IMG/VR virus record: IMGVR_UViG_3300042902_000064
Location: 1-64,000 of that record
Strand: one strand, 5' to 3'
From: a virus
Length of the DNA: 64,000 nucleotides
The position numbers and the translations under genes are program-made. The notes below the pieces were generated by a model. The model was not told the DNA's origin, searched no databases, and worked only from the letters and a program-made list of their open reading frames with translations. This document shows, piece after piece, positions 5,147-62,200 of the stretch; within the stretch, counting starts at the first letter, position 1, and every line of letters begins with the position of its first letter.

Positions 5147-7409
5147 AGTGGCTATTATAGATAAATACCCTAGCAATACAAGATATAATCAGTTTTTTGA
5201 TTTTGACTTTGACTTGTTACACTTATCTGATGTACGAAAAGATAAAATACTAAAGAAAGATATAACTTTAGACTTAACCTTGCAAGAGGGTTATGACTTC
5301 GTAATCCTAGTAGGTGCTGAGCCTGCTAAGTTTGTGGCTAAGATTACTGGTATTACTACCTCTCAGGGTTTCTTAATTGAAGAAAAGTTTCTTCCCTTGA
5401 CTAACCCTGCTATGGCTAAGATTAAGCCGGAGAGTTTACCTGCCTTTACTAAAGCTGTAGACAGTATAAATGCTTATGTTAAAGGCGAGCATGCTGCAAT
5501 TGCTAATGTAGAAACTTATTTCATTCAAGATGAAAATGTAGCCATCAAGTACTTAACTAAACTACTAGCATCCGACTTTAAATACCTAGCAGTGGATACA
5601 GAAACAACCTCTTTATACGCTAGAGACGGATATGTTTTAGGTATTTCTCTATCTCATAAAGAGAAGTTTGGCGTATATATTGACTCAGACTATATTACTG
5701 ATACAGTACAAGCTTTACTTCAAAAGCTATTCTTAGCTAAGACTTGCGTATTTCATAATGCGAAGTTCGATATTAAAATGTTAGAGTACCATTTCGACTT
5801 TGTTTTTGATAAAGTTGAAGATACTATGATGATTCATTACTTACTAGATGAAAGTCCGGGGACACATGGACTTAAGCCTTTAAGTATTAAGTATACCGAC
5901 CTAGGTGACTATGATAAAGAGCTAGACGAGTTCAGAAATAACTATTGTAAAAATCACAAAATTAAGAGAGCAGATTTTACTTATGATTTAATCCCTGCTC
6001 CAATATTATCAACTTATGCCGCTATAGATACTGCGGCAACTATTGAGCTATTTAATAAGTTTTTCCCTTCTATTGAAGGAAGCGAAGGCTTAACAAACGT
6101 ATATAGAAATATCATGGTTCCGGCTATGAAGTTTCTATGCGAAATGGAAGAAAATGGTGTGCCTTTCAGTAGAGAAAGACTAAGAGAAGCACAAGTTATC
6201 TTTGCCGCTAGGTTGCATGACTTAAAAACTTCTTTCTATTCATTTGATGTGGTAAAGCATTTTGAGGCTACAACCAATAAGATATTCAACCCCAACTCAG
6301 TAATACACTTACGCACTGTATTCTTTGATATGCTAAGATTACCTGTTCCTGATAAGAGAACGGATACTGGTGCTATATCTACAGATAAAGAAGTTCTAGA
6401 AGAGCTTGGAAAAATTCATGCACTTCCAAAAGCTATATCTGAATATAAAAAGATGTACAAAATCAAGTCTACTTATTTAGACAAGATTTTGCTTGGGTTA
6501 GATAGTGATGATAGGTTGCGTACAGGTTTTAACCTAACGACTACGACCTCCGGTCGACTTTCGTCTAGCGGTAAGCTAAACATGCAACAGCTTCCTCGTG
6601 ATGATAAGACTGTGAAGCGCTGTATTAAAGCTAGAGAAGGGTATGAGATAGTTTCTCAGGATTTAAAAACCGCTGAAATGTATATTGCCGCAGTTCTATC
6701 TGGTGATGAGAAGTTGCGTTCTGTGTTTGTTGATGGCGGAGATTTCCATAGTTCAATGGCTAAGATTGCTTTCAATATTAATTGCCCTGTTGAAGATATA
6801 GCTGAGAAGCATAAAGAGCTTCGTCAAGCGGCTAAAGCCGTAACCTTCGGTATTCTGTTCGGTTCTGGTGCGGCTAAGGTTGGTGAGTCTATTGGTAAGT
6901 CTACAGAAGAAGCTCAAGAAATTATCAATGAATACTTTGGTAACTTCCCTAAACTTAAGAAGTGGCTTGATTTACAGAAACAGCTAATTAAACAGCATGG
7001 TGAGTTATATTCTGCCTTTGGTAGAAAACGTAGACTTAAAAATGCTTTCTCTAGTGATAGACAAGTATCTGGTCATGCTATACGTTCAGGTGTTAACTTC
7101 CAAATTCAATCAGTAAGTTCTGATTTGAACCTAATCGCAGCTTTCAATACTCAGCTTCGTATTAAACAAGAAAACCTAGATGTTAAAATATTCGCACTAG
7201 TACATGATAGTATTATTGCGGAAGTTAAGATAGAAGATAAAGCTAGATACCTACAAATAATGGCAGAAGAAACACAGAAAGATATGGGTGTTAGTATCCC
7301 TGGTTCTCCTGTTGGTCTTGATGTTGAAATAGGTGAAGATTACTCGTTTGTTAAAGCGTCTGCTCCTGTATTTGATGCAGAGAATGAATTTGCGCTATTA
7401 GATGAATAA
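5133..7409 (+). CDS. family-A DNA polymerase with 3'-5' exonuclease domain
   Basis: Exo motifs AVDTETTSL and NAKFDIKML. Pol motif A SQDLKTAEMY, motif B RQAAKAVTFGILFG, motif C LVHDSII. About 140 aa of unassigned N-terminal extension. Confidence 0.9.
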   Translation: MTMPKVAIIDKYPSNTRYNQFFDFDFDLLHLSDVRKDKILKKDITLDLTLQEGYDFVILVGAEPAKFVAKITGITTSQGFLIEEKFLPLTNPAMAKIKPESLPAFTKAVDSINAYVKGEHAAIANVETYFIQDENVAIKYLTKLLASDFKYLAVDTETTSLYARDGYVLGISLSHKEKFGVYIDSDYITDTVQALLQKLFLAKTCVFHNAKFDIKMLEYHFDFVFDKVEDTMMIHYLLDESPGTHGLKPLSIKYTDLGDYDKELDEFRNNYCKNHKIKRADFTYDLIPAPILSTYAAIDTAATIELFNKFFPSIEGSEGLTNVYRNIMVPAMKFLCEMEENGVPFSRERLREAQVIFAARLHDLKTSFYSFDVVKHFEATTNKIFNPNSVIHLRTVFFDMLRLPVPDKRTDTGAISTDKEVLEELGKIHALPKAISEYKKMYKIKSTYLDKILLGLDSDDRLRTGFNLTTTTSGRLSSSGKLNMQQLPRDDKTVKRCIKAREGYEIVSQDLKTAEMYIAAVLSGDEKLRSVFVDGGDFHSSMAKIAFNINCPVEDIAEKHKELRQAAKAVTFGILFGSGAAKVGESIGKSTEEAQEIINEYFGNFPKLKKWLDLQKQLIKQHGELYSAFGRKRRLKNAFSSDRQVSGHAIRSGVNFQIQSVSSDLNLIAAFNTQLRIKQENLDVKIFALVHDSIIAEVKIEDKARYLQIMAEETQKDMGVSIPGSPVGLDVEIGEDYSFVKASAPVFDAENEFALLDE

Positions 7410-7911
7410 TCTTACATTAGATAAAATAGTCTTTCCAGTATTTAAGTTAAGAAGCTACGATAAGATAGAAACTATAGACGGCATAACAACCGTCTATACT
7501 TACTGGGGAGTTTATATATTAGATAACAAGAACCTAGTAGGAGAAACTTTAGGGGCTAGAAGGGTTAAGATAACGTCTGATAATGTATATAAACTACAGA
7601 AAGTTATAAAGTCTCCAAGAGACTTAATAATGGGAGCAACTAGCAAAGATACTTACATAGATAATACAGGAAGATTATTCTCTTACAAGAAGATGAAAAA
7701 TTGCATAGTACGGTGCTACGAGATTAAAAGTACAGTGAAGTTTAATGCGAAGGTAATAATACATTTATATGACCACCCTACTCCTGTTGTTGTACCTAGC
7801 GCAGTTTATGATAGCGAATATAAATATGTAACTATTGTAAGATATGGGGAGTATTATTTAATGTACAGCTTAGAAAGAGAGTATATAAAAGAATTTAAGA
7901 AGAAACTATGA
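7402..7911 (+). CDS. hypothetical protein
   Basis: ORF in the track; overlaps both neighbours by a few nt, consistent with translational coupling. Confidence 0.55.
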   Translation: MNNLTLDKIVFPVFKLRSYDKIETIDGITTVYTYWGVYILDNKNLVGETLGARRVKITSDNVYKLQKVIKSPRDLIMGATSKDTYIDNTGRLFSYKKMKNCIVRCYEIKSTVKFNAKVIIHLYDHPTPVVVPSAVYDSEYKYVTIVRYGEYYLMYSLEREYIKEFKKKL

Positions 7912-11304: not shown

Positions 11305-13096
11305 TTGGTTCAGTTACGGAGAAAACAACGAGCTAGAGTTTACCAATACCTCACTATTGCAGATTTGTGGCGCAAACGGCACAGGTAAAAGCTCAATACC
11401 AATTATACTAGAAGAAACGTTATTTGGTAAAAATAGTAAAGGTATAAAGAAAGCAGATATACCCAATAGAGCGATAGACTCGGCCGCTGTAGATAGTGTA
11501 GTCTACTTTTTAGCGAAGGGTGTTCAGTATGAGGTACATCTACACAGAAAAGGTGCAAGTACTAAACTGACGTTACTTCAAGATAAAGAAGATATTTCAA
11601 GTCATACAGCTACTGGAACATATGCTCAGATAGCAAATATTTTAGGATTAGATTATAAACTCTACTCCCAGCTAACATACCAAAGCAGTACAAGTAGCTT
11701 ACAGTTCTTGAAGGCTACAGATACTGAGCGTAAAAAGTTTCTTATATCTCTATTTAATCTTGATGATTATCTCGCACTTCATGAACAGTTCAAGAATGAG
11801 CATAAGACAGTAAGTAGTAAAACGACATATATTTCAGGTCAAGCTGATAGCTCTAGTAAGTGGTTGGCTGCTCATAAGGATATGGACTTAACTGAAAAAC
11901 CTCTTTACTCGCTGCCTATAGTTGAATCTAGTGACATAGATGAATTATCTGCTCTTTCTAACGCGTTAACTAATATTAAATCTAATAACGTAAAGATTAA
12001 TAAAAATAATGCGTATAAGGCTAAGCTAGAAGAGATTGATAAAAATCTTCTAATTTATAAAGATGAAGCCCCTGAGGTGTCTGCCGTATCTGATATAGAG
12101 TCAGATATTAAAGTAGAAAATGCTAACCTAAGCAGAGTTAATAGAGAGCTAAAACTACTAGAAGCTAAAAGTATAGATAAAACATGTAGTTCATGCGGAC
12201 AGACTATTCATGCCGAAAATGTAGCAGATATGATTGAAAAGTTGAAGAAAGAGGCAGAAGTTAGTAAGTGTAAAACCGATGGTTTTTCAGATGCGCTTAA
12301 GGAAGCTAAATCCAAGGCTGTAGCGTATAGTAAGCATAGGTCTGCTGTAGATGAGTTTGAGAAGTTATCTAATTATATTGATGAGTCCATTCCAGAGGAA
12401 ATAGACTCAGAAGAAGACCTAGAAGCAAATATATTAGTTATTAAAACTAAGATTAGAGATACAGAGTCAGAGGTTAAGAAAATATCTTTAAAAAATGCTG
12501 AAGCTACAGCACATAATGCTAAGATAGAAATACTTTCTGAAGAGTTGAAAACACATACTGAAAAATTGAGTAGTCTGTTTTCTGAGCAGACTAGTCTTCA
12601 AAATAAAATGGCTATTTTAGCCACACTTAAAGACGCTTTTGGAACAACAGGATTATTAACATATAAACTTGAGTTTGTTGTTAAAGCTTTAGAGGAAGAG
12701 ATAAACAACTATCTTATTGAGTTATCATCTGGAAGATTCCAGATACTATTTGTTCTAGTAAAAGATAAATTAAATATTGAGATCATAGATAATGGAACAA
12801 ATATTTCTATTAATGCTTTATCTACTGGTGAGCTTGCAAGAGTTAATACGAGTACCGTATTGGCTATCAGGAAGCTTATGTCAAATATCAGCAAGACTAA
12901 GCTTAATTTATTATTCCTTGATGAGATTATGGGAGTATTGGATGAAGAAGGCAAAGACACTTTAATTTCTCTACTAATTAAAGAAAACCTTAATACCCTT
13001 ATTGTTAGTCACGAATTTCAGCATCCGCTTGTCCCTCAAGTATTAGTCTCTAAAAATGAACACGATATTGCAAGTATAGAGAAGGTTAATGACTAA
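11270..13096 (+). CDS. SbcC/Rad50-type ATPase
   Basis: Walker A GANGTGKSS, long coiled coil with a central CSSCGQ zinc hook, signature LSTGE, Walker B LLFLDE. Confidence 0.85.
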   Translation: MMIYIQKLQWSNWFSYGENNELEFTNTSLLQICGANGTGKSSIPIILEETLFGKNSKGIKKADIPNRAIDSAAVDSVVYFLAKGVQYEVHLHRKGASTKLTLLQDKEDISSHTATGTYAQIANILGLDYKLYSQLTYQSSTSSLQFLKATDTERKKFLISLFNLDDYLALHEQFKNEHKTVSSKTTYISGQADSSSKWLAAHKDMDLTEKPLYSLPIVESSDIDELSALSNALTNIKSNNVKINKNNAYKAKLEEIDKNLLIYKDEAPEVSAVSDIESDIKVENANLSRVNRELKLLEAKSIDKTCSSCGQTIHAENVADMIEKLKKEAEVSKCKTDGFSDALKEAKSKAVAYSKHRSAVDEFEKLSNYIDESIPEEIDSEEDLEANILVIKTKIRDTESEVKKISLKNAEATAHNAKIEILSEELKTHTEKLSSLFSEQTSLQNKMAILATLKDAFGTTGLLTYKLEFVVKALEEEINNYLIELSSGRFQILFVLVKDKLNIEIIDNGTNISINALSTGELARVNTSTVLAIRKLMSNISKTKLNLLFLDEIMGVLDEEGKDTLISLLIKENLNTLIVSHEFQHPLVPQVLVSKNEHDIASIEKVND

Positions 13097-13551
13097 TGGT
13101 AGCTAAAGTAGATTCGAGAGCCAAAGGCGCTAGGATAGAGGCTCAAATAAAGAAAGTGCTTAAAGAGAGAACAGGATTAAACTGGGAAAGGATTCCCTCT
13201 TCTGGAGCCTTAGACGCAAAACACGGATTAAAAGGGGACTTATATGTTCCTGGAGAAGGTAATCTGTTCTGTGTAGAGGTTAAAGGATATAAAGAGGATC
13301 ATATTAATAGCGGATTGCTCACACATAAAACTCCACAAATAGAAGAGTGGGTTATCCAAGCCAGAAGACAGGGTGTGCAGGTAGGTAAGAAATGGCTATT
13401 AATATTTAAGTTCGATAGAAGTAAGATATTTGTATGTTTTGAGGAAGAACCTATAGAAGAATACAGATATATATATTATTCACATTTGAATGTATATATG
13501 GCTCTTTTAGATGATTGGCTAGAAGACAACCCAAAATTTATAAAGGTATAA
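13096..13551 (+). CDS. putative Holliday-junction resolvase (Hjc-like PD-(D/E)xK nuclease)
   Basis: KGARIE...SSGALDAKHGLKGDLYV...FCVEVKGYK resembles the archaeal Hjc G..E / S.GS..D / E.K pattern. Confidence 0.5.
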   Translation: MVAKVDSRAKGARIEAQIKKVLKERTGLNWERIPSSGALDAKHGLKGDLYVPGEGNLFCVEVKGYKEDHINSGLLTHKTPQIEEWVIQARRQGVQVGKKWLLIFKFDRSKIFVCFEEEPIEEYRYIYYSHLNVYMALLDDWLEDNPKFIKV

Positions 13552-52201: not shown

Positions 52202-52804
52202 TTATATCTCCCACTTATTAGACTTGGTTAAGTTTTCAGTTGCAGTAATTACTTGAATGTTGTCTGCACAGTGTAGCCCAGAAACTAGGTTGCCTTGTAG
52301 CGGAACTATATGGTCTACATGGTACTTAACGCCAGTTAATTCTTCTAAGTGTTTAGCGTGACTGTAGGCTTCTGATAGTACAAAGTCGTCGAGCTCTGAG
52401 AACCAGCATGGGATCGCCTGTAGTTTTGCTGCTCTTCTTTTTGCCTGCAGTGCATTAATCTTATCTTTATTATTATTCCTATATTCGGAATGTACTAAGC
52501 TTATCGCTTCTTTATTTTCCTGATAGTAATTATGTTTCCTAATAGATATGATTTTCTTGTTCTCTTCCTCGTAGCGAACAGCATTAGCACGAACAGCTTC
52601 CTTGTTTTCTGCCTTATATTTTACTTGGTATTTAGCTGCCTGTACTTTATTTCTCTGGTAGCTTTCTTTCCTGTTATCTAAGTGACACACTCGACAGTTA
52701 GCTGTTACTCCGGATTTAGTTGTAGAACTTTTAGTAAATAAATCAAAGGTCTTAACTTCCCCACACTTCTTACAGGCTTTACTTTTACTTATATCTATTT
52801 CCAT
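52202..52804 (-). CDS. HNH homing-type endonuclease (copy 2)
   Basis: Same architecture as 39466-40110. The C-terminus YHVDHIVPLQGNLVSGLHCADNIQVITATENLTKSNKWE is nearly identical to copy 1. Confidence 0.8.
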   Translation of the reverse strand: MEIDISKSKACKKCGEVKTFDLFTKSSTTKSGVTANCRVCHLDNRKESYQRNKVQAAKYQVKYKAENKEAVRANAVRYEEENKKIISIRKHNYYQENKEAISLVHSEYRNNNKDKINALQAKRRAAKLQAIPCWFSELDDFVLSEAYSHAKHLEELTGVKYHVDHIVPLQGNLVSGLHCADNIQVITATENLTKSNKWEI

Positions 52805-52821: not shown

Positions 52822-54114
52822 TTATTCAGTTAAGTTAGGTGCATAGGAGTAAATCATATACCTTATCGCATCCGCCATGTGACTGTATTCGTTGTGTTTC
52901 GGCTTTTCCCTTTCAAGACCTGTTTTAGACTCCCAGCTATAGTTATTCAATGCAGCAATACATTTAACACATCTAGGGTCTACCTTAAGTCTATCATTAT
53001 CTATAAGCGAAGCTACGAAACCAATACCGTCTAGAACAGACTTATTACTTTTAATAGTTGTAATATCGTATGTCATTGCCAAGTCCGCACGCGTCTGGGC
53101 TGCTGCGGAGTCTATGTAGAAGAGATCGATATCCCACTTCTCCATCAACACATGTATTCTCTCAGCATGTGCTTCAGTAGATTTTTGCACCATTTCATAC
53201 TCATCTACAATATAGATATTATACCCGTCTGTAACGGCGACACAAACAGCTGTAGGATCCTTGTACCCCATATCTATCCCGCCAATTACGTCCGAAACGC
53301 CTAACATGCTAAGGTCTATATTAGTAACCATAGTTTCTGTATTAAACGCCCATATTTTTCCTTGTAAAACACTGAAGTCAGCATAGTACTCCTGCCTCCA
53401 TTCCGCATCGCTCATCGACTTCTGAGCTGCTAGAATGTCTGCTTCTAATGCTCTAGGGTTTTCATGCCAATCTGCATGTATAGTAACCCAGTCCGAAAAC
53501 TCCTCGGAAAAGCCTCTATCAAAAACAGTACTAAACCAGTTTTTACCACGAGGCGTACTAATAAAGATACACTTGCTGTTTAGCTTATCTAGTGTTGGAC
53601 GTAGTTGTATATTGAAAGCATCGCCTCCCTTATCGGCGAGGGCAGCTTCATCAAATATAATAAGATCATACGATCTACCAACAACGGAATCAGGCTGACT
53701 AACAGACCCGACACGAATTGTACTACCATTAGTAAGTTCGATAATCTTGTCTTTAGCATTTGATTTGTCCAGCTCTATGTCGAACCTACGAAGTAGTCCC
53801 TTCTGTAGATCCCAAGAAATTGTTGATAGTGAGTAGTTCGGTGCCATTATAAGTACGTTAGCCCCAGGAACTAATGATACTAGGTTCCCTACTACGTTGG
53901 ATATAAATGTCTTACCCACACGTCTACTAAGACATGCAGTTATAAAACGATACTTTGGGTCATTTACAGCGTTTATAACAGCTATCTGAGGAGCATTAGG
54001 TTTAATATCTAACATTGGTAGATAGTTTTCTATTGGGAGCTTTAAGAACCTATCGTTAATATCACGAAGGACAATCTCATCACTTCTTACGTCTGGTCTA
54101 CTTATCGTTAGCAT
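52822..54114 (-). CDS. terminase large subunit
   Basis: Walker A-like CLSRRVGKTF, Walker B LIIFDEAA, and a C-terminal RNase H-like nuclease (GGIDMGYKDPTA, YIDSAA). Confidence 0.85.
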   Translation of the reverse strand: MLTISRPDVRSDEIVLRDINDRFLKLPIENYLPMLDIKPNAPQIAVINAVNDPKYRFITACLSRRVGKTFISNVVGNLVSLVPGANVLIMAPNYSLSTISWDLQKGLLRRFDIELDKSNAKDKIIELTNGSTIRVGSVSQPDSVVGRSYDLIIFDEAALADKGGDAFNIQLRPTLDKLNSKCIFISTPRGKNWFSTVFDRGFSEEFSDWVTIHADWHENPRALEADILAAQKSMSDAEWRQEYYADFSVLQGKIWAFNTETMVTNIDLSMLGVSDVIGGIDMGYKDPTAVCVAVTDGYNIYIVDEYEMVQKSTEAHAERIHVLMEKWDIDLFYIDSAAAQTRADLAMTYDITTIKSNKSVLDGIGFVASLIDNDRLKVDPRCVKCIAALNNYSWESKTGLEREKPKHNEYSHMADAIRYMIYSYAPNLTE

Positions 54115-54392: not shown

Positions 54393-54941
54393 CTATCCAT
54401 TGTTCTTCCCACCTATAATTTGCTGTAGTAAAGAACCGTAGTTTGATGATACAGAGTCCCCAACATTGGTAATTTGTACTGCCGTTCCAACCTTAGTTCT
54501 GCCTAAAGCTTCAACTTCTAGTATTTTAAGTTGCATTTTCATTTCTTCCATTCTCATTTTATGCGCAGCTAGGAGAAGTTCTGAAATATCTTTACTACTG
54601 ACTAGTTCTGTTTCCTCCATCTCCGCCAGCTTAGCGTCGATGACGCTAGACATGGCGTTACTTATGCGACTTCTATTCATATATCCTTGGTCTAGGAAGG
54701 CTTGGTCTACTACCGTGCGTACAGATTTATGACGCATCATTTTTGTGACTTCTTCTAGAGACATACGCATTAGTTTACCTGTCTCTTTTAAATCTAGGCA
54801 TGATAAATAACACTTAGCAAATTCTAAGTGTTCAGGTGATATATTGAACTCTTCGTCTAAGACTGTTGGTTCAGGGCGACTAGAGGGCATTATCTCTAGT
54901 GAGGAATTTTGAGGTTGTGTATCGTAGTTGTCTTCTAACAT
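54393..54941 (-). CDS. putative terminase small subunit
   Basis: Sits upstream of TerL, is helical, and is the first gene after the consensus promoter. I place the start at ATG 54941, because the track start at 55001 is a TTG inside the -35 box. Confidence 0.45.
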   Translation of the reverse strand: MLEDNYDTQPQNSSLEIMPSSRPEPTVLDEEFNISPEHLEFAKCYLSCLDLKETGKLMRMSLEEVTKMMRHKSVRTVVDQAFLDQGYMNRSRISNAMSSVIDAKLAEMEETELVSSKDISELLLAAHKMRMEEMKMQLKILEVEALGRTKVGTAVQITNVGDSVSSNYGSLLQQIIGGKNNG

Positions 54942-55001: not shown

Positions 55002-55329
55002 GAAAAATATTTTTGTACCACATAAGTGTATCGATATTTTATTACTTTTTGAAATTGTGGGAGGTATGGTAGGGAGGGGAAGGATTAACGAAGTTGTAAA
55101 TCTCGGGAAACTTTGATAATTTTTTGAGGATTGGGGTGTTTGGTGTTGTGGAAGACAAGTCTCGGTAGCTTTCGCTTATTGGTGGCGGTTGTTGGAAACA
55201 AGGGAAGATTAGGGCATTTGTATTGATGTGTATAGATAGACCTTTCTTATAAAACGAAAAAATCCAAATGGTTTACGCGCGGGTGGGCTCTCCTGCAAGA
55301 ACTGTGCCATGTCTGATAACCGCCCCCAT

Positions 55330-55457
55330 TGGCACGGATCTTGCTAGGGATTCCAGATGGCACGGATCTTGCTAGGGATTCCAGATGGCATGGATCTTGC
55401 TAGGGATTCCAGATGGCATGGATCTTGCTAGGGATTCCAGATGGCATGGATCTTGCC
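55330..55457 (+). repeat. tandem array of 4.5 x 28 bp, each unit carrying a sigma-54 -24/-12-like core
   Basis: Unit: ggca(c/t)ggatcttgctagggattccagat. Cores TGGCA(C/T)GGATCTTGC(T/C) lie at 55330, 55358, 55386, 55414 and 55442. Every unit contains a GATC. Confidence 0.9.
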
Positions 55458-55533
55458 CACGGCATGAGAATTTACACTAACAAAGCTAGGTTGTAACACC
55501 TTGATTTATAAGGAGTTTTTAAGATTTGCGCTG

Positions 55534-55565
55534 ATTTGCGCAAATTTTCGGCTGGTCGAAAATTT
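55534..55565. promoter_or_regulatory. palindrome ATTTGCGCAAAT plus an adjacent 9-bp-stem hairpin, flanked by 19-bp direct repeats
   Basis: atttgcgcaaat at 55534-55545. aaattttcg-gctggt-cgaaaattt at 55542-55565. Direct repeats ttgatttataagga(g/c)tttt at 55501 and 55572. Confidence 0.5.
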
Positions 55566-55660
55566 AAGTCATTGATTTATAAGGACTTTTTATTTTAATG
55601 CGATCTGAAAAATTTTATTTCTGTATAATAAACTCATAGGCAAAGACAAGGAACATTAAA

Positions 55661-55750
55661 ATGATAAAAACAATTTTTTTACTTATTATATCATACGCGG
55701 GTTTTCTCGCGTATAATGTAGGACTGGCAATTTTGCCATTATTGGGATAA
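55661..55750 (+). CDS. possible 29-aa hydrophobic mini-protein (MIKTIFLLIISYAGFLAYNVGLAILPLLG)
   Basis: Read by eye; below the track threshold. AAGGAA SD lies 7 nt upstream of the ATG. Confidence 0.35.
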   Translation: MIKTIFLLIISYAGFLAYNVGLAILPLLG

Positions 55751-55779
55751 CTCCCGCTTTTCAATCTGAGGATCTAAAA

Positions 55780-56199
55780 ATGACAACTTCAACAACTGCA
55801 ACAAAATCAGCGGTCGCCAACTATGACGCGGATACAACTAGCCAAGTGATCAAGGCGATGCAAGGCGTAAAAAACCACGCCGATCAAGTCGCCGCGATCA
55901 TTGGCTTAATGCTATCAACTGGAAAAAATAAAAGGTCTTTAACTGCTAAAATCAGCAACCTGAGCCGCGATGCAGAAAACAAGATCACGTTTTACGGGGT
56001 AGAAAAAAACACCACGAAAACAGGATCAAAGGTAGAAAGCAAAGCGATCAAGGTTCAACAGATCGAAAAATTGATCGGTGGTGGTGTTCAACTTGATAGC
56101 ATGGAGAAATGTACCAAACATGATCTAGATATTATCTTAGGTGCGCTGTCAATGACTGAGGAAGAAATCGCCGACCTTAATGACGATCAAGCAATCTAA
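55780..56199 (+). CDS. DNA-binding-like protein, paralogue of 58767-59123
   Basis: The two proteins align along their length: Y.(D/E)D.T, S(L/V)(T/R)AK(I/L), K(N/T)TK(T/S)G, (L/I)..I..L(I/M)G.....(M/L)EK.TK..L..I. Confidence 0.65.
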   Translation: MTTSTTATKSAVANYDADTTSQVIKAMQGVKNHADQVAAIIGLMLSTGKNKRSLTAKISNLSRDAENKITFYGVEKNTTKTGSKVESKAIKVQQIEKLIGGGVQLDSMEKCTKHDLDIILGALSMTEEEIADLNDDQAI

Positions 56200-56216
56200 A
56201 AACCGTTAAACCTTGC

Positions 56217-56240
56217 AAGGTCGCCGCCTTTGGCGACCTT
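56217..56240 (+). promoter_or_regulatory. intergenic 9-bp-stem hairpin (attenuator or processing site candidate)
   Basis: aaggtcgcc-gccttt-ggcgacctt. Only a weak T-run follows. Confidence 0.4.
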
Positions 56241-56259
56241 CACTTTAGGATCTAAAATT

Positions 56260-56508
56260 ATGAATAACGAAATATACGATGACTCGATAGAAAACTATAA
56301 TCAAACGATTATAACAGGACTCGAAATGGTTGCGGCGATCTTAACGGTGGCTGGCTTATACTTACTTACTATAGGCGTCGCGCTTGGGTTTATTTTAGGC
56401 GCGTTGGGTTGCGTGGCTTGGCTGATTGTTGCGTTAAGCAATAAGTTATACTATTTAGCCGCCTTAAACGTTGCCCTTTTTATTATCAACGTATCAGGTG
56501 CGATATAA
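56260..56508 (+). CDS. small integral membrane protein (about 3 TM segments)
   Basis: I place the start at ATG 56260. It is preceded by AGGATCTAAAA, the same RBS context as gene 55780. The sequence has hydrophobic stretches. Confidence 0.6.
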   Translation: MNNEIYDDSIENYNQTIITGLEMVAAILTVAGLYLLTIGVALGFILGALGCVAWLIVALSNKLYYLAALNVALFIINVSGAI

Positions 56509-57206
56509 TGAAAAAGCAATTTTATATTATAGTAGACACTGAAACGACAGAGGAAGATACGGTCGCGGACTTTGGCGCGGTGGTATGTGATCGGCACGGT
56601 GTGATCTTCCACGAGATCGGCGTACTTGTCGCGGGTGAATTTGGCGAGAAAAAACTGTTCCACGATCAGAACAGTAAATTAGAGATCTGGAACATGAGAG
56701 GCTTACAAAGAAGAACCGAAAATTATAATAGTATGCTTAACAGCGGATCGCGGGTACTGGCAAGCGTTAATGCGATCAACCGCTGGTTAGACAAAGCGAT
56801 CAGCTTATACAATCCTGAGCTGACAGCGTATAATCTAGCCTTTGATCTTGGAAAATGTGCGAATACTGGAATTGATCTCACTCGCTTTGATCGTCGTTTT
56901 TGCCTTTGGCAAGCGAGCGTGGGTAATATCTGTAACACGAAAAAATACAAAAAATTTGTTTTAGATAATCACTACTTCAACAACAGAACCGAAAAAGGCA
57001 ATATGACGATCCAAACTAGCGCGGAGCGCGTCACTCACTTTGTGACGGGCGCGGATCTTACTGAGCCGCATACAGCCTTAGAAGATGCGCGAGACTTTGA
57101 GCTAAAAATATTAAAGCACATACTAAAGAAGCGGGCTTGGCGTGAAAATATGAGACCGTATAGCTGGCACGACCATCAACTAAATAACCATTTTTCCGCT
57201 AATTAA
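56508..57206 (+). CDS. DEDDh (DnaQ-like) 3'-5' exonuclease
   Basis: Exo I IIVDTETT, Exo II AYNLAFD, Exo III HTALEDARD. Confidence 0.8.
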   Translation: MKKQFYIIVDTETTEEDTVADFGAVVCDRHGVIFHEIGVLVAGEFGEKKLFHDQNSKLEIWNMRGLQRRTENYNSMLNSGSRVLASVNAINRWLDKAISLYNPELTAYNLAFDLGKCANTGIDLTRFDRRFCLWQASVGNICNTKKYKKFVLDNHYFNNRTEKGNMTIQTSAERVTHFVTGADLTEPHTALEDARDFELKILKHILKKRAWRENMRPYSWHDHQLNNHFSAN

Positions 57207-57257
57207 ATAATCAACTAGCGCGATCCCGAAAGGGATCGCCACTTGGGGCAAAATAAA

Positions 57258-57743
57258 ATGAAAAATAAAATTATAACTTTTGATTTCGATGGCGTGCTTG
57301 CTGATAGCTCGAATCGTTACCAACTAGCAAAAACCGAACCGCACGAAAAACCACGGATCGATCTTCAACACTGGCGCGATAATTCTCATAAAGTAGCGGA
57401 GGATCTTCCTATAGCGGAAAATATCGCGCTTTATAACGCGGCGATCAAAGATCCGACCGTGGTGGTCGTTATCGCGACCGCTAGGGTATGGTGTGAACTT
57501 TCGGATCGGTGGGTCTTTGATCATCTTGATGCCTTTCCAGATTACCTGAGCCATAGGATCAACGAGGAAGATCAACGACCTGCCAACGATATAAAAGGCG
57601 TTTTTGTTGCTTCACTTTTGCAGATATACAAATCAATAAAAACGGTCGTATTTTATGATGATAATCTAGAATACTTAAAACAATTTAAGCAAGCGATACC
57701 ACACGCTGAAACGATTCATATATTGAGCAATCAAGGGTACTAG
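57258..57743 (+). CDS. HAD-superfamily 5'(3')-deoxyribonucleotidase-like phosphatase
   Basis: ITFDFDGVLADS (DxDGV motif I, as in the NT5C family DMDGVLADF). VIATAR and YDDN resemble motifs II-IV. I place the start at ATG 57258. Confidence 0.65.
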   Translation: MKNKIITFDFDGVLADSSNRYQLAKTEPHEKPRIDLQHWRDNSHKVAEDLPIAENIALYNAAIKDPTVVVVIATARVWCELSDRWVFDHLDAFPDYLSHRINEEDQRPANDIKGVFVASLLQIYKSIKTVVFYDDNLEYLKQFKQAIPHAETIHILSNQGY

Positions 57744-57746
57744 ACT

Positions 57747-57833
57747 ATGAAAATTTTCTTTTCTGGCATGGCTAAATTGATATTTTTTATTATTATCTTG
57801 TTTTTACTTGTTACTTTTACCTTACCGATCTAG
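57747..57833 (+). CDS. possible 28-aa hydrophobic mini-protein (MKIFFSGMAKLIFFIIILFLLVTFTLPI)
   Basis: Read by eye; below the track threshold. It lies 3 nt after the stop of the phosphatase gene and just before the terminator. Confidence 0.35.
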   Translation: MKIFFSGMAKLIFFIIILFLLVTFTLPI

Positions 57834-57844
57834 CACCTGAGGAC

Positions 57845-57879
57845 AAAAAAACCCGTTATTATATAGCGGGTTTTTTTTT
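57845..57879. terminator. bidirectional rho-independent terminator
   Basis: A7-acccg ... cgggt-T9. Confidence 0.7.
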
Positions 57880-57895
57880 GCCAAAAATAAAAACT

Positions 57896-57911
57896 TGGCA
57901 CGAATTTTGCG
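57896..57911 (+). promoter_or_regulatory. solitary sigma-54 -24/-12-like element TGGCACGAATTTTGCG
   Basis: Matches TGGCACG-N4-TTGC with exact GG/GC spacing. A weaker copy, TGGCATGGCGTTAGCC, lies at 57918-57933. Confidence 0.45.
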
Positions 57912-57944
57912 CCAAAATGGCATGGCGTTAGCCATTCATTATAT

Positions 57945-58033
57945 CGCGCCGTAAATGCGAATCATTCTCATTTAGATTTGCACTTAGGTTTACGCCCGCA
58001 AATGTAAATAAGAATGATTCGCATTTGGGCGCG
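57945..58033. repeat. 89-nt inverted repeat (about 33 bp of potential stem)
   Basis: Perfect 16-bp arms aaatgcgaatcattct (57953-57968) / agaatgattcgcattt (58011-58026). Extended outward by cgcgcc/ggcgcg and inward by attta/taaat and atttgc/gcaaat. Confidence 0.85.
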
Positions 58034-58104
58034 CCGAAAAATGCACGGACTCCCACGATACCATGATATCAGGTTACTTGTCCACATGCAAATTTATTTT
58101 ACCA

Positions 58105-58233
58105 TGCAAGAATCATGCCATGAAAAAACAAGCAAGAATCATGCCATGAAAAAACAAGCAAGAATCATGCCATGAAAAAACAAGCAAGAATCATGCCATG
58201 AAAAAACAAGCAAGAATCATGCCATGAAAAAAC
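58105..58233 (-). repeat. tandem array of 5 x 26 bp carrying sigma-54 -24/-12-like cores on the - strand
   Basis: + strand unit: gcaagaatcatgccatgaaaaaacaa. Its reverse complement contains TGGCATGATTCTTGC(T/A). The core is the same as in the 55.3-kb array but in inverted orientation. Confidence 0.9.
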
Positions 58234-58461
58234 GTCAATTTTTTGACGCGTCAATTTTTTGACTGTCAATTTTTTGACGCGTCATTTTTTTGACGTCAAT
58301 TTTTTGACTGTCAATTTTTTGACGCGGCATTTTTTTGACGTCAATTTTTTGACTGTCAATTTTTTGACTGTCAATTTTTTGACGCGGCATTTTTTTGACG
58401 CGTCAATTTTTTGACGCGTCATTTTTTTGACGTCAATTTTTTGACGCGTCAATTTTTTGAC
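58234..58461. repeat. 15 tandem copies of a 14-nt unit GTCAA-TTTT-TTGAC (spacers 0-2 nt)
   Basis: 11 x GTCAATTTTTTGAC, 2 x GTCATTTTTTTGAC, 2 x GGCATTTTTTTGAC. The 5-nt arms are reverse complements of each other. Confidence 0.9.
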
Positions 58462-58591
58462 GGTAGCACAAAAAGCGCAAGCTTTTTGCGCCAGTGCGCA
58501 ACTGCAATTTTTTTCAAGTGCATGAGTGCCGTGGGGGCAGGTGCGTGCAGACAGTGCCAGAGCGACATATGTCAAGTAAATATTTTTAAAC

Positions 58592-58620
58592 TTGATTATA
58601 GTTCCTGATCGGCGTATAAT
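58592..58620 (+). promoter_or_regulatory. sigma-70-like promoter TTGATT-17-TATAAT
   Basis: Hexamers at 58592-58597 and 58615-58620. Confidence 0.6.
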
Positions 58621-58680
58621 AGTATTTATCAGATGAGGAAAGTTTCAAGAAGTAAGTACCACCCAACGAAAAAATAGTTC

Positions 58681-58709
58681 TTGACTTCTGACCTCATCAA
58701 GCGTATAAT
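58681..58709 (+). promoter_or_regulatory. sigma-70-like promoter TTGACT-17-TATAAT
   Basis: Hexamers at 58681-58686 and 58704-58709, about 58 nt upstream of ATG 58767. Confidence 0.7.
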
Positions 58710-58766
58710 ATATATATTGAATTGGGAAATGGTTCCCAATCATCGAATTCCTTGGAGGAACGTACC

Positions 58767-59123
58767 ATGACTGACAAAGCTAAAGTAACAGGTGCTCGTT
58801 ATACTGAAGATCAAACACTAGAGTTGGTAGAAGCATATACAGCCGTTGAAACACAAGAAGCACGCGACGCAGTGGTATCTACTTATGCCGCTAAGTTCGA
58901 ACGCCCAGTAGCCTCCGTTAGAGCGAAGCTCGCATCTGAGCGGGTTTATGTACCTAAAGCTAAGACTACTAAATCTGGCGATCCTATCGTTCGTAAAGAC
59001 CAGCTAGTAGCTCAAATTGCCCACCTAATGGGTGAGTCAGAAGAAGCGGTTGAGTGCCTAGAAAAGGTTACTAAACCTGTACTACAAAAAATCATCACTC
59101 AACTAACTTCCCCTTGGGAGTAA
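58767..59123 (+). CDS. DNA-binding-like protein, paralogue of 55780-56199
   Basis: I place the start at ATG 58767, with a GGAGGA SD. See the alignment motifs listed for 55780-56199. The N-terminal domain also resembles the repeats of 1331-2071. Confidence 0.7.
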   Translation: MTDKAKVTGARYTEDQTLELVEAYTAVETQEARDAVVSTYAAKFERPVASVRAKLASERVYVPKAKTTKSGDPIVRKDQLVAQIAHLMGESEEAVECLEKVTKPVLQKIITQLTSPWE

Positions 59124-59141
59124 AGTTCTCTTGAACAATTA

Positions 59142-59166
59142 AGCCTGCCTTGTGCAGGTTTTTTTG
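59142..59166 (+). terminator. rho-independent terminator
   Basis: cctgc-cttgt-gcagg followed by T7. Confidence 0.7.
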
Positions 59167-59200
59167 TGCCCAAAATAAATGACCTCTCCCAGCCTGCGCC

Positions 59201-59230
59201 ATTATACGCCTCCCAAATACTTTTTGTCAA
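59201..59230 (-). promoter_or_regulatory. sigma-70 consensus hexamers TTGACA-18-TATAAT on the - strand, facing the 3' end of gene 58767-59123
   Basis: TTGACA (59230-59225), 18-nt spacer, TATAAT (59206-59201). Confidence 0.55.
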
Positions 59231-59500
59231 GTCAATTTCAAACTCAGTTTTTCAAAAGTGCATAGTCTGTTTTTGTGTAGTCTATTTATACCGCCCCCTC
59301 GGCGCCAGTGCTCAACTGTAAATTTTCAGGGCGCCCATTATAACACACAGACATACATAGTTGTCAACTGTGTTTTCCGGCAGTGGGTTGCCCAGATTTT
59401 AAGAAGAGGGAAGTCTGTCCCGTGTCCCAGGACTAGGGACACCAAGCAATTACTTTTTTGTAAATGTCAAGTATTATTTCTCCCCAATTGTATATAACTG

Positions 59501-59532
59501 CCCCTATCCGCCGCTTCGCGGCTAGACGGGGG
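59501..59532 (+). repeat. conserved ~33-nt hairpin element, copy 1
   Basis: CCCCTATCC-GCCGCTTCGCGGC-TAGAC-GGGGG: an inner GCCGC/GCGGC stem and an outer CCCC/GGGG stem. Confidence 0.6.
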
Positions 59533-59557
59533 AGATAGGTTAATATAAAGTTGGATA

Positions 59558-59595
59558 ATCCCCAATTTGGGGATCATCGTACCCAATTTGGGGAT
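59558..59595 (+). repeat. two tandem copies of (C)CCCAATTTGGGGAT
   Basis: atccccaatttggggat at 59558-59574 and tacccaatttggggat at 59580-59595. A related ccccaattg lies at 59482. Confidence 0.6.
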
Positions 59596-59858
59596 GATGT
59601 GATGAGAGCCATAGGTATACCTCTTACTTTCTGAGTTGTGAAGATTCAGGCAAAAGTGGTGTTCCCCAAACTAAGAAAACCTACAACAATTACACAATCG
59701 AGGAAGATCATATGGTGAATTATTTTTTTACAATGAGGAATTCTGAAACTTTCAAAATTTTGTGCAGGAACCGAACAAATAGGGGAAATATCGCTATTTT
59801 ACACATATCAACAATAAAACCCGTATTTAGGAAATAAGTGCCCTTTTTGAGCAGTAAT

Positions 59859-59893
59859 CCCCCTATTTGCCGCTTCGCGGCAGGTTGGGGAGG
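59859..59893 (+). repeat. conserved ~33-nt hairpin element, copy 2
   Basis: CCCCCTATTT-GCCGCTTCGCGGC-AGGTT-GGGGAGG, in the same orientation as copy 1. Confidence 0.6.
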
Positions 59894-60133
59894 TTATAGA
59901 GGTATTCTGCATATTTGGGCAGGTTATAACACTTATCTACCGTAATTCACTTGATTGGGGAATTATATGCGGTAATTTACAAAATAGCGCCGAAATTGAT
60001 CTGGCAGCGCCGATTTTCAGACTTGAAATCTTGAGCCGCTGCTTTCTAATGATTTCAGGGTAATATTCAGGGCAGATATACAGAGCTATCTAGTAGTAAG
60101 TGTGAAATCGTGCAGTACAAAACATACAGACAT

Positions 60134-60156
60134 AAAAAAGCCCCAATTAAGGGGCT
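60134..60156 (-). terminator. rho-independent terminator ending the - strand operon
   Basis: On the - strand: AGCCCC-ttaatt-GGGGCT followed by T6. Confidence 0.7.
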
Positions 60157-60162
60157 GATTGT

Positions 60163-60336
60163 TTATCTGTAGCTAGAGTCTATATACTTTTTGAGTTTTA
60201 CAACTTCACCAGCTAGCTTAGTGTTTAGTGCGGCACTTCTAGCCAGCTGGTCACTTAGTGTATCAAGGTATCCTATTGCCTTATCTAATTCAGTCTCTAG
60301 TATCTCTACACGTCCTTCAAGTGTTATGTTTGACAT
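60163..60336 (-). CDS. possible 57-aa coiled-coil protein (MSNITLEGRVEILETELDKAIGYLDTLSDQLARSAALNTKLAGEVVKLKKYIDSSYR)
   Basis: Read by eye; below the track threshold. AGGAGAA SD upstream. The terminator follows directly. Confidence 0.5.
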   Translation of the reverse strand: MSNITLEGRVEILETELDKAIGYLDTLSDQLARSAALNTKLAGEVVKLKKYIDSSYR

Positions 60337-60344
60337 ATGTTCTC

Positions 60345-60494
60345 CTAAATTATATGGTAAGGTAAAGGCTTACCTTCTAAGCATGCTATTCGTCGCTCTA
60401 AAGCAGCCTGTGCTCTTTTTGTCCTCTGTAGCTTAAACTTCAGCTCTTGTATAAGTTCTAGTGCTTCTTTTTCATTTAGTTGTCTAATACTCAT
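60345..60494 (-). CDS. possible 49-aa helical protein (MSIRQLNEKEALELIQELKFKLQRTKRAQAALERRIACLEGKPLPYHII)
   Basis: Read by eye; below the track threshold. Confidence 0.4.
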   Translation of the reverse strand: MSIRQLNEKEALELIQELKFKLQRTKRAQAALERRIACLEGKPLPYHII

Positions 60495-60663
60495 TAGTAT
60501 GTCCTTTTATAACTAAGTGAAATGGAGTTCTTGGTGGTTGCTCCCATTCAAAGGGACCCCGGTGTGTAGCTCTATCTATCTCTATGTTAAGCAGGCGTCT
60601 TTCTAAATCTGCTATAGCTTTTGACTGCTGCTCTATTAATAGTAGCATATCTTTCTTTTTCAT
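60484..60663 (-). CDS. possible 59-aa protein (MKKKDMLLLIEQQSKAIADLERRLLNIEIDRATHRGPFEWEQPPRTPFHLVIKGHTNEY)
   Basis: Read by eye; below the track threshold. GGAGGAG SD upstream. Confidence 0.45.
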   Translation of the reverse strand: MKKKDMLLLIEQQSKAIADLERRLLNIEIDRATHRGPFEWEQPPRTPFHLVIKGHTNEY

Positions 60664-60736
60664 GTATTCTCCTCCCCATCCACGCTGCTACGCAGCAAAC
60701 AAGGGCAGCAAATAGGTTAAGTAATTAGTTAATATT

Positions 60737-61627: not shown

Positions 61628-61640
61628 TAATCTTCTCTAT

Positions 61641-61700
61641 ATCTAGAATAGGTTATTGTATCTAGAATTTTTATATCTAGAATAGTGTGTTATCTAGAAT
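61641..61700. promoter_or_regulatory. four spaced copies of ATCTAGAAT (TCTAGA palindrome core) upstream of gene 60737-61627
   Basis: Copies at 61641, 61660, 61675 and 61692. A fifth, TTCTAGAAT, lies at 60735-60743 and overlaps the stop codon of the same gene. Confidence 0.5.
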
Positions 61701-61790
61701 GGTACTTCATTGATTAGCGTAGAAAGTTTAAATACGCAAGAAAGCCTAAACAGCAAAGTATAGGCGTAAATTTAATTGTATAAATAATGT

Positions 61791-61836
61791 GGGAAGTCTT
61801 ATTAGCTCCATTTAAGTTAATAAGACTTCCCTTTTT
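61791..61836 (+). terminator. perfect 14-bp-stem hairpin with T5 on the + strand
   Basis: gggaagtcttatta (61791-61804) / taataagacttccc (61818-61831), then ttttt. Confidence 0.6.
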
Positions 61837-61916
61837 AGTATCTTTAGTAGTATGGTTAGGTTTTAATTTTTATTACCGATCATTTTACGTAGTTATGGCT
61901 TTGGGCTTGTAATCTA

Positions 61917-62049
61917 ACAAACTAGAGCAACCTGCCCCTAATGAAAGAAGTAGGGAAGAAAGAACATAGTAAAAATCTCTCCTTCCTTTGAGTTCCATGC
62001 AAGATTTTTTAGTTCTTCCCCTCCGTCTTTAGGAGGTTTGCTCGTTTGT
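61917..62049. other. 133-nt nested imperfect hairpin (structured RNA or processing-site candidate)
   Basis: Nested helices: 61917-61922/62044-62049, 61925-61930/62038-62043, 61944-61948/62026-62030, 61953-61958/62015-62020, 61971-61978/62002-62009. Confidence 0.5.
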
Positions 62050-62076
62050 GATTATTGTTTTTCAAATTATATAAAT

Positions 62077-62105
62077 ATTATACCATATTAATTTACAAAA
62101 GTCAA
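62077..62105 (-). promoter_or_regulatory. sigma-70-like promoter TTGACT-17-TATAAT on the - strand
   Basis: TTGACT (62105-62100), 17-nt spacer, TATAAT (62082-62077). It fires into the structured region at 61917-62049. Confidence 0.65.
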
Positions 62106-62200
62106 TACTTTACCTAAATATCTTAGCTAAATCTTTAATTCTGAGTCTGGATACTTTGTTTTGGTTAGCTTCTTAGATTGATCGAGTACTCGAAAATTTA

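Follow-up and report, generated by a model that had tools for sequence, protein, structure and literature searches.

The interval 55040-59170 of the IMG/VR virus record IMGVR_UViG_3300042902_000064 raises the question of what a locus of about 4 kb, filled with tandem repeats, palindromes and small genes, does immediately outside the late block of a phage genome. The DNA analysed here, called the window below, is the stretch from position 1 to 64,000 of this record (64,000 nucleotides, nt). The original prediction, made from the sequence letters, was that the interval is the counterpart of the first-transferred region of phage T5, which carries the pre-early takeover genes and ends in a repeat-rich injection-stop region. 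The stop and restart of T5 DNA transfer, and the survival of the leading end before any phage gene is expressed, are long-standing problems (10.1101/866236). On balance, the comparisons reported here make it rather likely that the interval is the terminal-repeat, pre-early (first-entering) module of a distant T5-like phage, host-factor arrays included.

Two terminase genes adjoin the locus, terL (52822-54114, minus strand; Pfam Terminase_6N/6C, PHROG 2) and terS (54393-54941, minus strand; PHROG 3802, E 5e-30). The latter is the final gene of the minus-strand late block, which runs up to 55,001, and has a consensus sigma-70 promoter at 55001-54973 (score 12/12). The locus therefore lies just outside the late block, as originally described. 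The product of terL shares 48% identity with the terminases of Vibrio T5-like phages (pVp-1, phi3, JSF10 and Ceto) and also matches those of hundreds of Salmonella and Escherichia T5-like phages. The nearest TerS proteins, those of Aeromonas T5-like phages, are about 36% identical, and relatives have the family T5_Terminase_small (PF26823). The DNA of the locus gave no match to GenBank phages in near or distant search modes, and exact protein matches were found only in short contigs of the same phage. Joined to the terminase matches, this lack of GenBank DNA matches indicates that the window most probably belongs to an uncultivated, distant T5-like phage. Two other samples yielded contigs that carry the locus with 99.4-100% identity but break or drop copies at the arrays; since independent assemblies reproduce the locus in this way, the arrays are real and their copy numbers uncertain. 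The relatives and contigs compared below are labelled by L-numbers, L015-L134 being IMG/VR contigs and L001 being pVp-1. An HNH/endonuclease VII-like gene also adjoins terL (52202-52804, minus strand), and its equivalent in L137 has PF26848, Phage_T5_Nicking_endo.

The elements on which the reading of the locus mainly depends are the following.

55270-55326, plus strand: conserved T5-family terminus element, GTTTACGCGCGGGTGGG, about 30 nt, then GTCTGATAACCGCCCC
55295-55309, minus strand: single sigma-54-like core inside the terminus element, TGGCACAGTTCTTGC
55330-55456, plus strand: array 1, 28 nt in 4.5 copies; five units, each with TGGCAYGGATCTTGCT (GG-N10-GC)
57896-57932, plus strand: two solitary sigma-54-like cores, exact at 57896 and with one mismatch at 57918
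57945-58033, no strand: 89-nt perfect-stem palindrome with arms GCGCCGTAAATGCGAATCATTCTCATTT
58106-58233, minus strand: array 2, 26 nt in 4.9 copies; five units with TGGCATGATTCTTGCT
58233-58462, no strand: GTCAA-T4-TTGAC operator array, 15 tandem dimer-type units at 14-16-nt spacing (repeat-finder unit 15-16 nt)
59280-59297, plus strand: second copy of the 3' half of the terminus element, GTCTATTTATACCGCCCC, a candidate right-boundary marker

A non-coding block of about 60 nt at 55270-55326 is common to the window and to L007 and L008, two relatives found through terS. Its consensus, GTTTTACGYGnGGGTGGG followed after 25-30 nt by GTCTsATWACCGCCC, aligns with the annotated repeat starts of T5 and phi3 as well as with sequences of pVp-1, Ceto, L007, L008, L057, L084, L108 and L111. 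Genome base 1 of T5 falls within the element; in phi3, the last copy coincides exactly with the start that is annotated for the right terminal repeat; in pVp-1 and Ceto, the element lies between dmp and the genes beside terS. A profile built from the aligned elements also matched four sequences that had not been used for training, namely L060 (E 2e-3), L137 (E 1e-4), L139 (E 2e-4) and the Aeromonas phage AhSzq-1 (E 3e-9). All these matches adjoin terS, between terS and the pre-early genes, and have the same orientation relative to terS. The element forms no hairpin (folding z-score, z, +1.6) and, having no secondary structure, looks like a protein recognition site. From the homology of the element, the physical left end of the genome, or left edge of the terminal repeat, is predicted at about 55,275-55,290. 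The proximity to a terminus that the original prediction needed is thus found, in the form of a predicted terminus.

Between terS and this predicted terminus, outside the repeat, lies a G-rich, C-poor tract (55040-55220, plus strand). No other 170-nt stretch of the 64 kb has as much G as its segment 55051-55220 (36% G, 8% C), in agreement with the first description of the locus. Such a tract also occurs in L007 and L008, and that of the window has AAATCTCGGGAAACTTTGATAA, which resembles the T5 sequence just ahead of the T5 right terminal repeat.

The other edge of the repeat can be placed with weak to moderate confidence. Exactly two occurrences of the motif GTCT-N3-7-ACCGCCC are present in the 64 kb, where 0.04 would be expected; they lie at 55311 and 59280, share a strand and are separated by 3969 nt. 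ACCGCCCC likewise has exactly two occurrences, at these same places. The 59280 copy comes just after the last plus-strand gene and its terminator. In T5, ATAACCGCCC is found twice, about 170-200 nt past the left-repeat boundary, and L139 has a similar second motif 9.9 kb downstream. The recurrence of the half-element past the last terminator and these likenesses to T5 and L139 led to about 59.2 kb being taken as the candidate right boundary. The terminal repeat would then measure about 4 kb, and the flagged interval would be roughly the entire repeat instead of a region ending in an injection-stop signal, as had been proposed. An untranslated region of about 1 kb with GC hairpins (59124-60160) follows the candidate boundary and could be part of the repeat.

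Just inside the predicted left end begins the most unusual content of the locus. Arrays 1 and 2, called by Tandem Repeats Finder, lie on opposite strands, and their cores have the exact -24 GG/-12 GC spacing (GG-N10-GC) of the sigma-54 consensus. The motif TGGCAYG-N4-TTGC has 11 exact sites in the 64 kb vs 0.05 expected, and TGGCAY-N5-TTGC has 13, all within 55295-58224 and none in the other 61 kb. The inverted arrays and the solitary cores thus stand as they were first read. Array 1 starts about 42 nt inside the predicted left end and points into the locus; it lies 1216-1340 nt upstream of the window terL and is oriented away from it. Its place is therefore at the predicted leading end (about 40 nt inside) and not at a stop point, which corrects the original prediction. 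Array 2 points left and the solitary cores point right, both toward the 89-nt hairpin. With regard to a downstream gene in the right orientation, array 1 has the four-gene cassette, while array 2 and the solitary sites converge on the palindrome. L007 has a sigma-54-like site at the position equivalent to the 55295-55309 core. The spacer of every array 1 unit contains GATC.

Sigma-54 holoenzyme forms a stable closed complex, and the start of transcription needs an activator ATPase. No enhancer-binding activator signature (GAFTGA/Walker) is present in the window; a lone GSFTGA was rejected as such a signature, being in a structural gene and without a Walker motif. From the fit to the consensus, we infer that the 13 TGGCAY-N5-TTGC sites may be docking sites for the host sigma-54 RNA polymerase.

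Arrays of this kind are not peculiar to this phage, contrary to what had been supposed. A scan of IMG/VR for two cores 5-30 nt apart, for which about one match is expected by chance (an estimate), revealed tandem pairs or clusters of sigma-54-like cores in at least 120 contigs. At positions that the search left unconstrained, 418 distinct sites from the 120 contigs listed show Y before TGGCA in 88%, R after the G in 82%, W after TTGC in 90% and T-T in the spacer. These flank preferences agree with the extended sigma-54 consensus. They also agree with TGGCACnnTTnTTGC, the motif obtained for the Escherichia coli RpoN holoenzyme by systematic evolution of ligands by exponential enrichment (PMC8743547).

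Position and orientation of the sites are conserved as well. A terL homologue (23-58% identity) is present in 45 of the listed contigs. Of their 176 sites, 173 are upstream of terL, at a median of 1286 nt, and 148 of these 173 (86%) point away from it, toward the early genes. In L057, L108 and L111, same-strand sites lie 2-198 nt inside the terminus element. About 35 of the listed contigs form an uncultivated group with terL 27-33% identical to that of the window; their cluster lies about 1.3 kb upstream of terL and points at small early genes. L061 and L069 have 13-14 dispersed sigma-54-like sites. Among the listed contigs, many of which are related to one another, the spacing of same-strand neighbours peaks at 26-28, 36-37 and 47 nt, i.e., near 2.5, 3.5 and 4.5 helical turns, which are half-integral values. 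Nickievirus and the Stenotrophomonas phages (nearest cultured terL relatives, second contig group) were considered and set aside, their layout being different.

Cultured T5-like phages of Vibrio and Aeromonas also have the sites. Three exact sites were found in pVp-1, two in phi3, two in Ceto and three in AhSzq-1, i.e., 10 in 78 kb vs about 0.3 expected. They sit in the untranslated regions of the terminal repeats, the Ceto site at 735 overlapping the end of gp2. In pVp-1 and AhSzq-1, sigma-54-like sites are directly beside perfect DnaA boxes, and in phi3 they are in the same untranslated regions as these. A 25-nt inverted-repeat pair of AhSzq-1, with members 1.7 kb apart, has the site as its core. 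Sites are also found 4-7 kb from the terminus in pVp-1, phi3 and AhSzq-1. In the untranslated pre-early regions of pVp-1 (3930-4030 and 6790-6815), perfect LexA-type boxes, CTGTATATTTATACAG and CTGTATAAATATACAG, adjoin DnaA boxes and sigma-54-like sites; no LexA box was found in the window. In the literature, whose coverage was incomplete, no paper was found that links sigma-54 sites with T5-like phages or phage termini, and no description was found, in the searchable part, of the site clusters that more than 100 viral contigs have upstream of their terminase genes.

Two further repeat elements lie next to array 2. The hairpin at 57940-58036 has a folding free energy of -31.6 kcal/mol (z -8.9). 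The palindrome arm GCGCCGTAAATGCGAATCATTCTCATTT matches the inner part of the L108/L111 terminus element at 24 of 28 positions, and is also like motifs in L036, L007, pVp-1 and AhSzq-1. A phage protein that also acts at the terminus may bind the 89-nt palindrome. The palindrome is flanked by GCGC motifs. Comparison with Rfam gave sub-threshold hairpin matches only.

On the other side of array 2, the operator GTCAATTTTTTGAC occurs 15 times, at 58234-58461, when up to two mismatches are allowed (11 exact copies and 4 with 1-2 mismatches), vs 0.7 expected. Since the 4-nt spacer is fixed, the conserved unit is one that a dimeric protein would bind. GTCAA-N4-TTGAC is shared only with L084, where ten exact copies are dispersed in the equivalent region; four of these ten directly follow sigma-54-like sites. 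Judged from adjacency only, the binder of the array is most plausibly the A2 paralogue encoded 300 nt downstream.

The genes of the locus and the remaining signals are as follows.

55494-55592, no strand: palindromic module, two 28-nt direct repeats around TTTGCGCAAA and TTTTCG..CGAAAA palindromes
55661-55750, plus strand: candidate hydrophobic mini open reading frame (mini-ORF), 29 amino acids (aa)
55780-56199, plus strand: A2-like paralogue a, 139 aa (BLASTP E 2e-5 against the gene at 58767)
56260-56508, plus strand: small membrane protein, 82 aa, PnuC/PQ-loop-like (weak; Pfam PF04973, E 2e-4, below cut-off; PHROG 1880)
56508-57206, plus strand: predicted DEDDh (DnaQ-fold) 3'-5' exonuclease, 232 aa
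57258-57743, plus strand: predicted T5-family deoxynucleoside-5'-monophosphatase (dmp; dNMPase), HAD fold
57747-57833, plus strand: second candidate hydrophobic mini-ORF, 28 aa
57836-57882, no strand: bidirectional intrinsic terminator (A7, stem, T9; z -4.8)
58592-58620 (10/12) and 58681-58709 (11/12), plus strand: two tandem near-consensus sigma-70 promoters for A2-like paralogue b
58767-59123, plus strand: A2-like paralogue b, 118 aa, T5 A2 family (PHROG 1725, E 3e-8)
59141-59168, plus strand: terminator past A2-like paralogue b

Several of these genes are of T5 pre-early type. The A2-like protein b and all 9 of its homologues have a precomputed assignment to PF26822, and in BLASTP it matched the A2 proteins of T5 (E 1e-3), pVp-1 (E 5e-4) and also phi3; no relatives were found in IMG/VR with this protein. 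The A2-like pair, a duplication, also occurs in L036 and L123. The predicted dmp is 36% identical (E 1e-23) to an L137 protein with PF26880 (Phage_T5_dNMPase), and has weak direct matches to the dmp of T5 and pVp-1. The direct Pfam scan was made with a set that contains neither the T5 A2 nor the dNMPase model, and its results were empty or weak.

Another gene of the cassette belongs to a family that is abundant in metagenomes. In the predicted exonuclease, D10, E12, D113, H188 and D193 (D-x-E, D, H-x4-D) are invariant in 28 homologues. Its AlphaFold2 (AF2) model has a pLDDT of 92.8, and Foldseek relates it to the DinG exonuclease domain, TREX2, ExoI and Orn. The family, for which there is no Pfam model, numbers 2576 metagenomic homologues, many with about 60% identity and exactly 232 aa, and no homologue was found in cultured phages. 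A sequence search of the PDB with the exonuclease and the HAD protein gave nothing informative. L140 has, after its exonuclease gene, an equally placed 82-aa gene for a PQ-loop protein (PF04193), which can be likened to the window membrane protein by size and position.

The order A2, membrane protein, exonuclease is kept in L008 and L108 (39-68% terS identity). The 29-aa mini-ORF is not conserved in L008. L137 and L139, two long relatives, follow the same general plan: terS is followed by the terminus element and by a pre-early block on the plus strand, with dNMPase and exonuclease, and an untranslated region separates this block from minus-strand genes that include A2. The cassette (55780-57743) contains 18.3 GATC per kb vs 1.07 per kb in 1-55000, a 17-fold difference. 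GATC is depleted in this latter part (59 observed vs about 191 expected), and the cassette is 2.5-fold above the expectation from its base composition. The cassette of L008 likewise looks GATC-rich.

Most elements named by the original prediction are thus borne out: the GATC-rich cassette, the palindromic operator module (z -3.1 for 55515-55570), the bidirectional terminator, the 89-nt hairpin, the 15 operators, the two tandem strong promoters and the second copy of the DNA-binding-like gene, whose two copies are paralogues. The DnaA-box-like sequence reported at 58078-58086 does not survive, as TTGTCCACA falls outside the pattern TTWTNCACA and the window has no enrichment in such boxes.

How far does this locus correspond to the first-transferred region of T5? 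In 25 T5-like phages, paired DnaA boxes in two inverted repeats form the conserved heart of the injection-stop region, and it was proposed that host DnaA holds the DNA there (Davison, 10.1101/866236). Like the left terminal repeat of T5, the window locus lies beside the terminase genes at the end of the late block, begins with the same terminus element, has genes of the dmp and A2 families with very strong sigma-70 promoters, and contains untranslated regions with many direct and inverted repeats and palindromes, among which one inverted pair of host-factor modules. It differs from T5 in its length (about 4 kb vs 10 kb, if the right boundary is correct), in having all its genes on one strand, in its gene content (no A1, a DEDDh exonuclease, a duplicated A2), in sigma-54-type sites that stand in place of DnaA boxes, and in a 15-unit operator array in place of the DRD repeats. 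With regard to the injection-stop region itself, the arrays at 58106-58462 sit 0.7-1.1 kb before the candidate right boundary, with A2-like gene b intervening. Paired inverted repeats with host-factor sites are present (array 1 on the plus strand, array 2 on the minus strand), the inverted pair of AhSzq-1 being an analogue, whereas paired DnaA boxes are absent. The claimed equivalence with the T5 region holds, therefore, for the T5-like nature of the phage, the predicted terminus, the A2 and dNMPase genes and the inverted arrays; it fails for A1 and the DnaA boxes.

The repeats of pVp-1, phi3, Ceto and AhSzq-1 are intermediate in this respect. They share with the window the terminus element, sigma-54-like sites at untranslated regions and a GCGAATGATTCTCATT-type palindrome. 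Unlike the window, they keep dmp-A1-A2 and the DnaA boxes, their sites are single and not in five-fold arrays, and pVp-1 has LexA-type boxes. This comparison with T5-type repeats provides the strongest support for what the original prediction proposed.

If the interval is such a terminal-repeat module, its working can be pictured as follows. The terminal repeat would have been assembled as a single collapsed copy beside terS. The sites would be arranged as two blocks in inverted orientation: the first, about 40 nt from the leading end, is directed inward, and the second, 2.8 kb in, is directed backward, with the solitary sites and array 2 converging on the 89-nt palindrome. These blocks would hold the place of the paired DnaA-box inverted repeats of T5, i.e., they would be the same kind of host-factor module, and the module would hold, pause or insulate the first-entering DNA. 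A phage dimer, most plausibly an A2 paralogue, bound to the 15 operators might regulate the pair of strong promoters ahead of the second A2 gene, or free the host-factor block. T5 degrades host DNA to nucleosides, and the exonuclease, the dNMPase and the membrane protein might do the same here. The equivalence with the DnaA-box repeats is ranked first because the inverted five-fold arrays are in positions analogous to those of these repeats in T5-like phages.

A wider generalisation is speculative and, in our view, unlikely. Throughout a T5-related, mostly uncultivated assemblage, clusters of sigma-54 holoenzyme sites just inside the leading end, together with inverted modules, might act as a host clamp; a long-lived, activator-less closed complex would capture the DNA as it enters, pause it or shield it at a time when no phage protein has yet been made. 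In this role, the sites and the DnaA boxes that enterobacterial T5-like phages carry would be interchangeable.

Several observations weigh against assigning the interval to a terminal-repeat module with host-factor arrays. T5 has no sigma-54-like site at all. Consensus DnaA boxes (TTWTNCACA) number 3 in the window vs 7.3 expected, with none in 55040-59170; the one nearest to the flagged interval, at 59797, is outside it. A1 proteins of T5, pVp-1 and phi3 gave no tblastn match in the 64-kb window, although the gene may lie outside. In L137 and L139, which share the exonuclease and the dNMPase, sigma-54-like sites number none or one and other arrays are used instead, so the motif is not essential to the architecture and is one of several lineage-specific solutions. 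L137 has an array of ATGCGCGGGTTTACGGGG in 14.8 copies at 12843-13109, with a shorter copy at 7740-7808, and no sigma-54-like site. Searched with the full terminus profile, neither the window nor T5 shows a further copy at the right boundary; the boundary depends on one 18-nt motif, and the duplication of the repeat at both genome ends is only predicted. Adjacency is the sole link between A2 and the operators. The binding of sigma-54 holoenzyme, in a host that would need rpoN, is predicted from the fit to the consensus. Furthermore, the common orientation of 86% of the sites upstream of terL in the other listed contigs would fit real promoters better than passive clamps.

This last point leads to the explanation that comes closest, possible if doubtful, according to which the sigma-54-like sites are genuine activator-dependent promoters, the copies at the leading end firing immediate-early into the cassette. 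A host enhancer-binding protein responding to infection stress may trigger them, and transcription might draw the DNA in. T7 offers a precedent, since its A1-A3 left-end cluster acts in transcription-coupled genome entry. As at the T7 left end, host-polymerase sites are clustered just inside the leading end of the window and point inward; unlike them, T7 sites are sigma-70 promoters that fire unaided and are about 100 nt apart. The window core TGGCAYG-N4-TTGCW has the -24 GG/-12 GC spacing and the consensus flanks of RpoN promoters, array 1 is aimed at the cassette with no sigma-70 promoter of at least 10/12 between the two, nearly all listed sites are upstream of terL, most of them oriented away from it, and the dispersed sites of L061 and L069 look like a promoter set. 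However, unlike RpoN promoters, the window sites form tandem arrays at 26-28 nt and lie at a predicted phage genome end, and this spacing is too tight for independent initiation complexes. No enhancer sites were found, the DNA of about 42 nt upstream of array 1 leaves no room for an enhancer, and no activator gene signature is present in the window, even if a host activator is possible. Array 2 has no gene downstream of it and, together with the solitary sites, converges on a gene-less palindrome.

If the motif were instead read by phage proteins (TerS, A2, a nicking or cutting enzyme) for packaging, end formation or repeat duplication, its sigma-54 likeness would be incidental. The arrays are close to both the terminus element (4-200 nt) and terS (about 300 nt), and in many listed contigs stand about 1.3 kb upstream of terL; they vary between related lineages, as co-evolving pairs of proteins and sites do, and the hairpin arms resemble the terminus elements of sister phages. 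Yet the same 11-position motif, with the same flank preferences, is retained where terL is only 23-33% identical, and in pVp-1, phi3 and AhSzq-1 there are occurrences 4-7 kb away from the terminus. This is easier to explain by a conserved host protein than by phage proteins that diverge, which makes the reading by phage proteins improbable. The operators can also be compared with the centromeres of plasmid partition systems and with iteron or operator arrays, which are bound by dimeric ribbon-helix-helix or helix-turn-helix proteins. In both cases at least ten short tandem palindromes with a spacing below 20 nt stand beside the gene of a small DNA-binding protein, but the window locus has no partition ATPase and belongs to the terminal repeat of a lytic phage. 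The arrays might also serve as decoys, drawing sigma-54, or RNA polymerase in general, away from host promoters during replication of the phage genome: 13 sites of high consensus quality per repeat copy would give thousands per cell after replication, and the operator array carries 30 TTGAC half-sites that are -35-like. This is very improbable, as a phage with a predicted exonuclease and dNMPase for the destruction of host DNA would have little need to silence sigma-54 genes, a decoy does not need a conserved position and orientation at the terminus, and relatives manage without the sites. Least probable of all is that the GATC-rich four-gene cassette is a recent mobile or moron element unrelated to DNA entry. 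Its GATC density, 17 times that of the rest of the genome, and the inverted arrays on both sides would suit such an origin; however, its genes are T5-type pre-early functions, and both the order A2-membrane protein-exonuclease (in L008 and L108) and the GATC richness (in L008) are found in relatives. The terminal-repeat module with host-factor arrays thus remains the preferred reading.

Some features of the DNA beyond A2-like gene b deserve mention. The region 59124-60720 contains three CCCC..GCCGC-TTCG-GCGGC..GGGG hairpins (at 59501, 59860 and 60675) and a direct repeat, CCCAATTTGGGGAT. Two leftward consensus-like promoters (59230-59201 and about 59370-59338) have in common with 58488-58512 and with L036 a GCGCCAGTG..GGGCGCCCATTATA module. 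Three consecutive small coiled-coil-like ORFs (57, 49 and 59 aa) lie on the minus strand at 60163-60663. A 296-aa ORF without family match also follows the locus on this strand; L014 has a 278-aa gene in the equivalent position, L123 has a weak homologue, and no relatives were found in IMG/VR with the 296-aa protein. A 34-nt tandem repeat (61638-61700, 1.9 copies) is included in a 570-nt untranslated gap (61628-62200).

The most interesting result is the comparative pattern: sigma-54-type sites replace or join DnaA boxes in repeats of T5 type, and clusters of them stand upstream of the terminase genes in more than 100 contigs. As read from sequence comparison, T5-type repeat modules appear to swap their host-factor sites, with DnaA in enterobacterial phages, DnaA and sigma-54-type in those of Aeromonas and Vibrio, and sigma-54-type only in this phage. 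What could only be called a repeat-rich region is thus opened to specific tests, for which cultured phages of Vibrio and Aeromonas are suitable. The terminus signature can be used to predict T5-family genome ends in metagenomic contigs, and a very abundant family of pre-early exonucleases, absent from cultured phages, is brought to light. The sigma-54 arrays would give a new experimental handle on the control of T5-type DNA entry.

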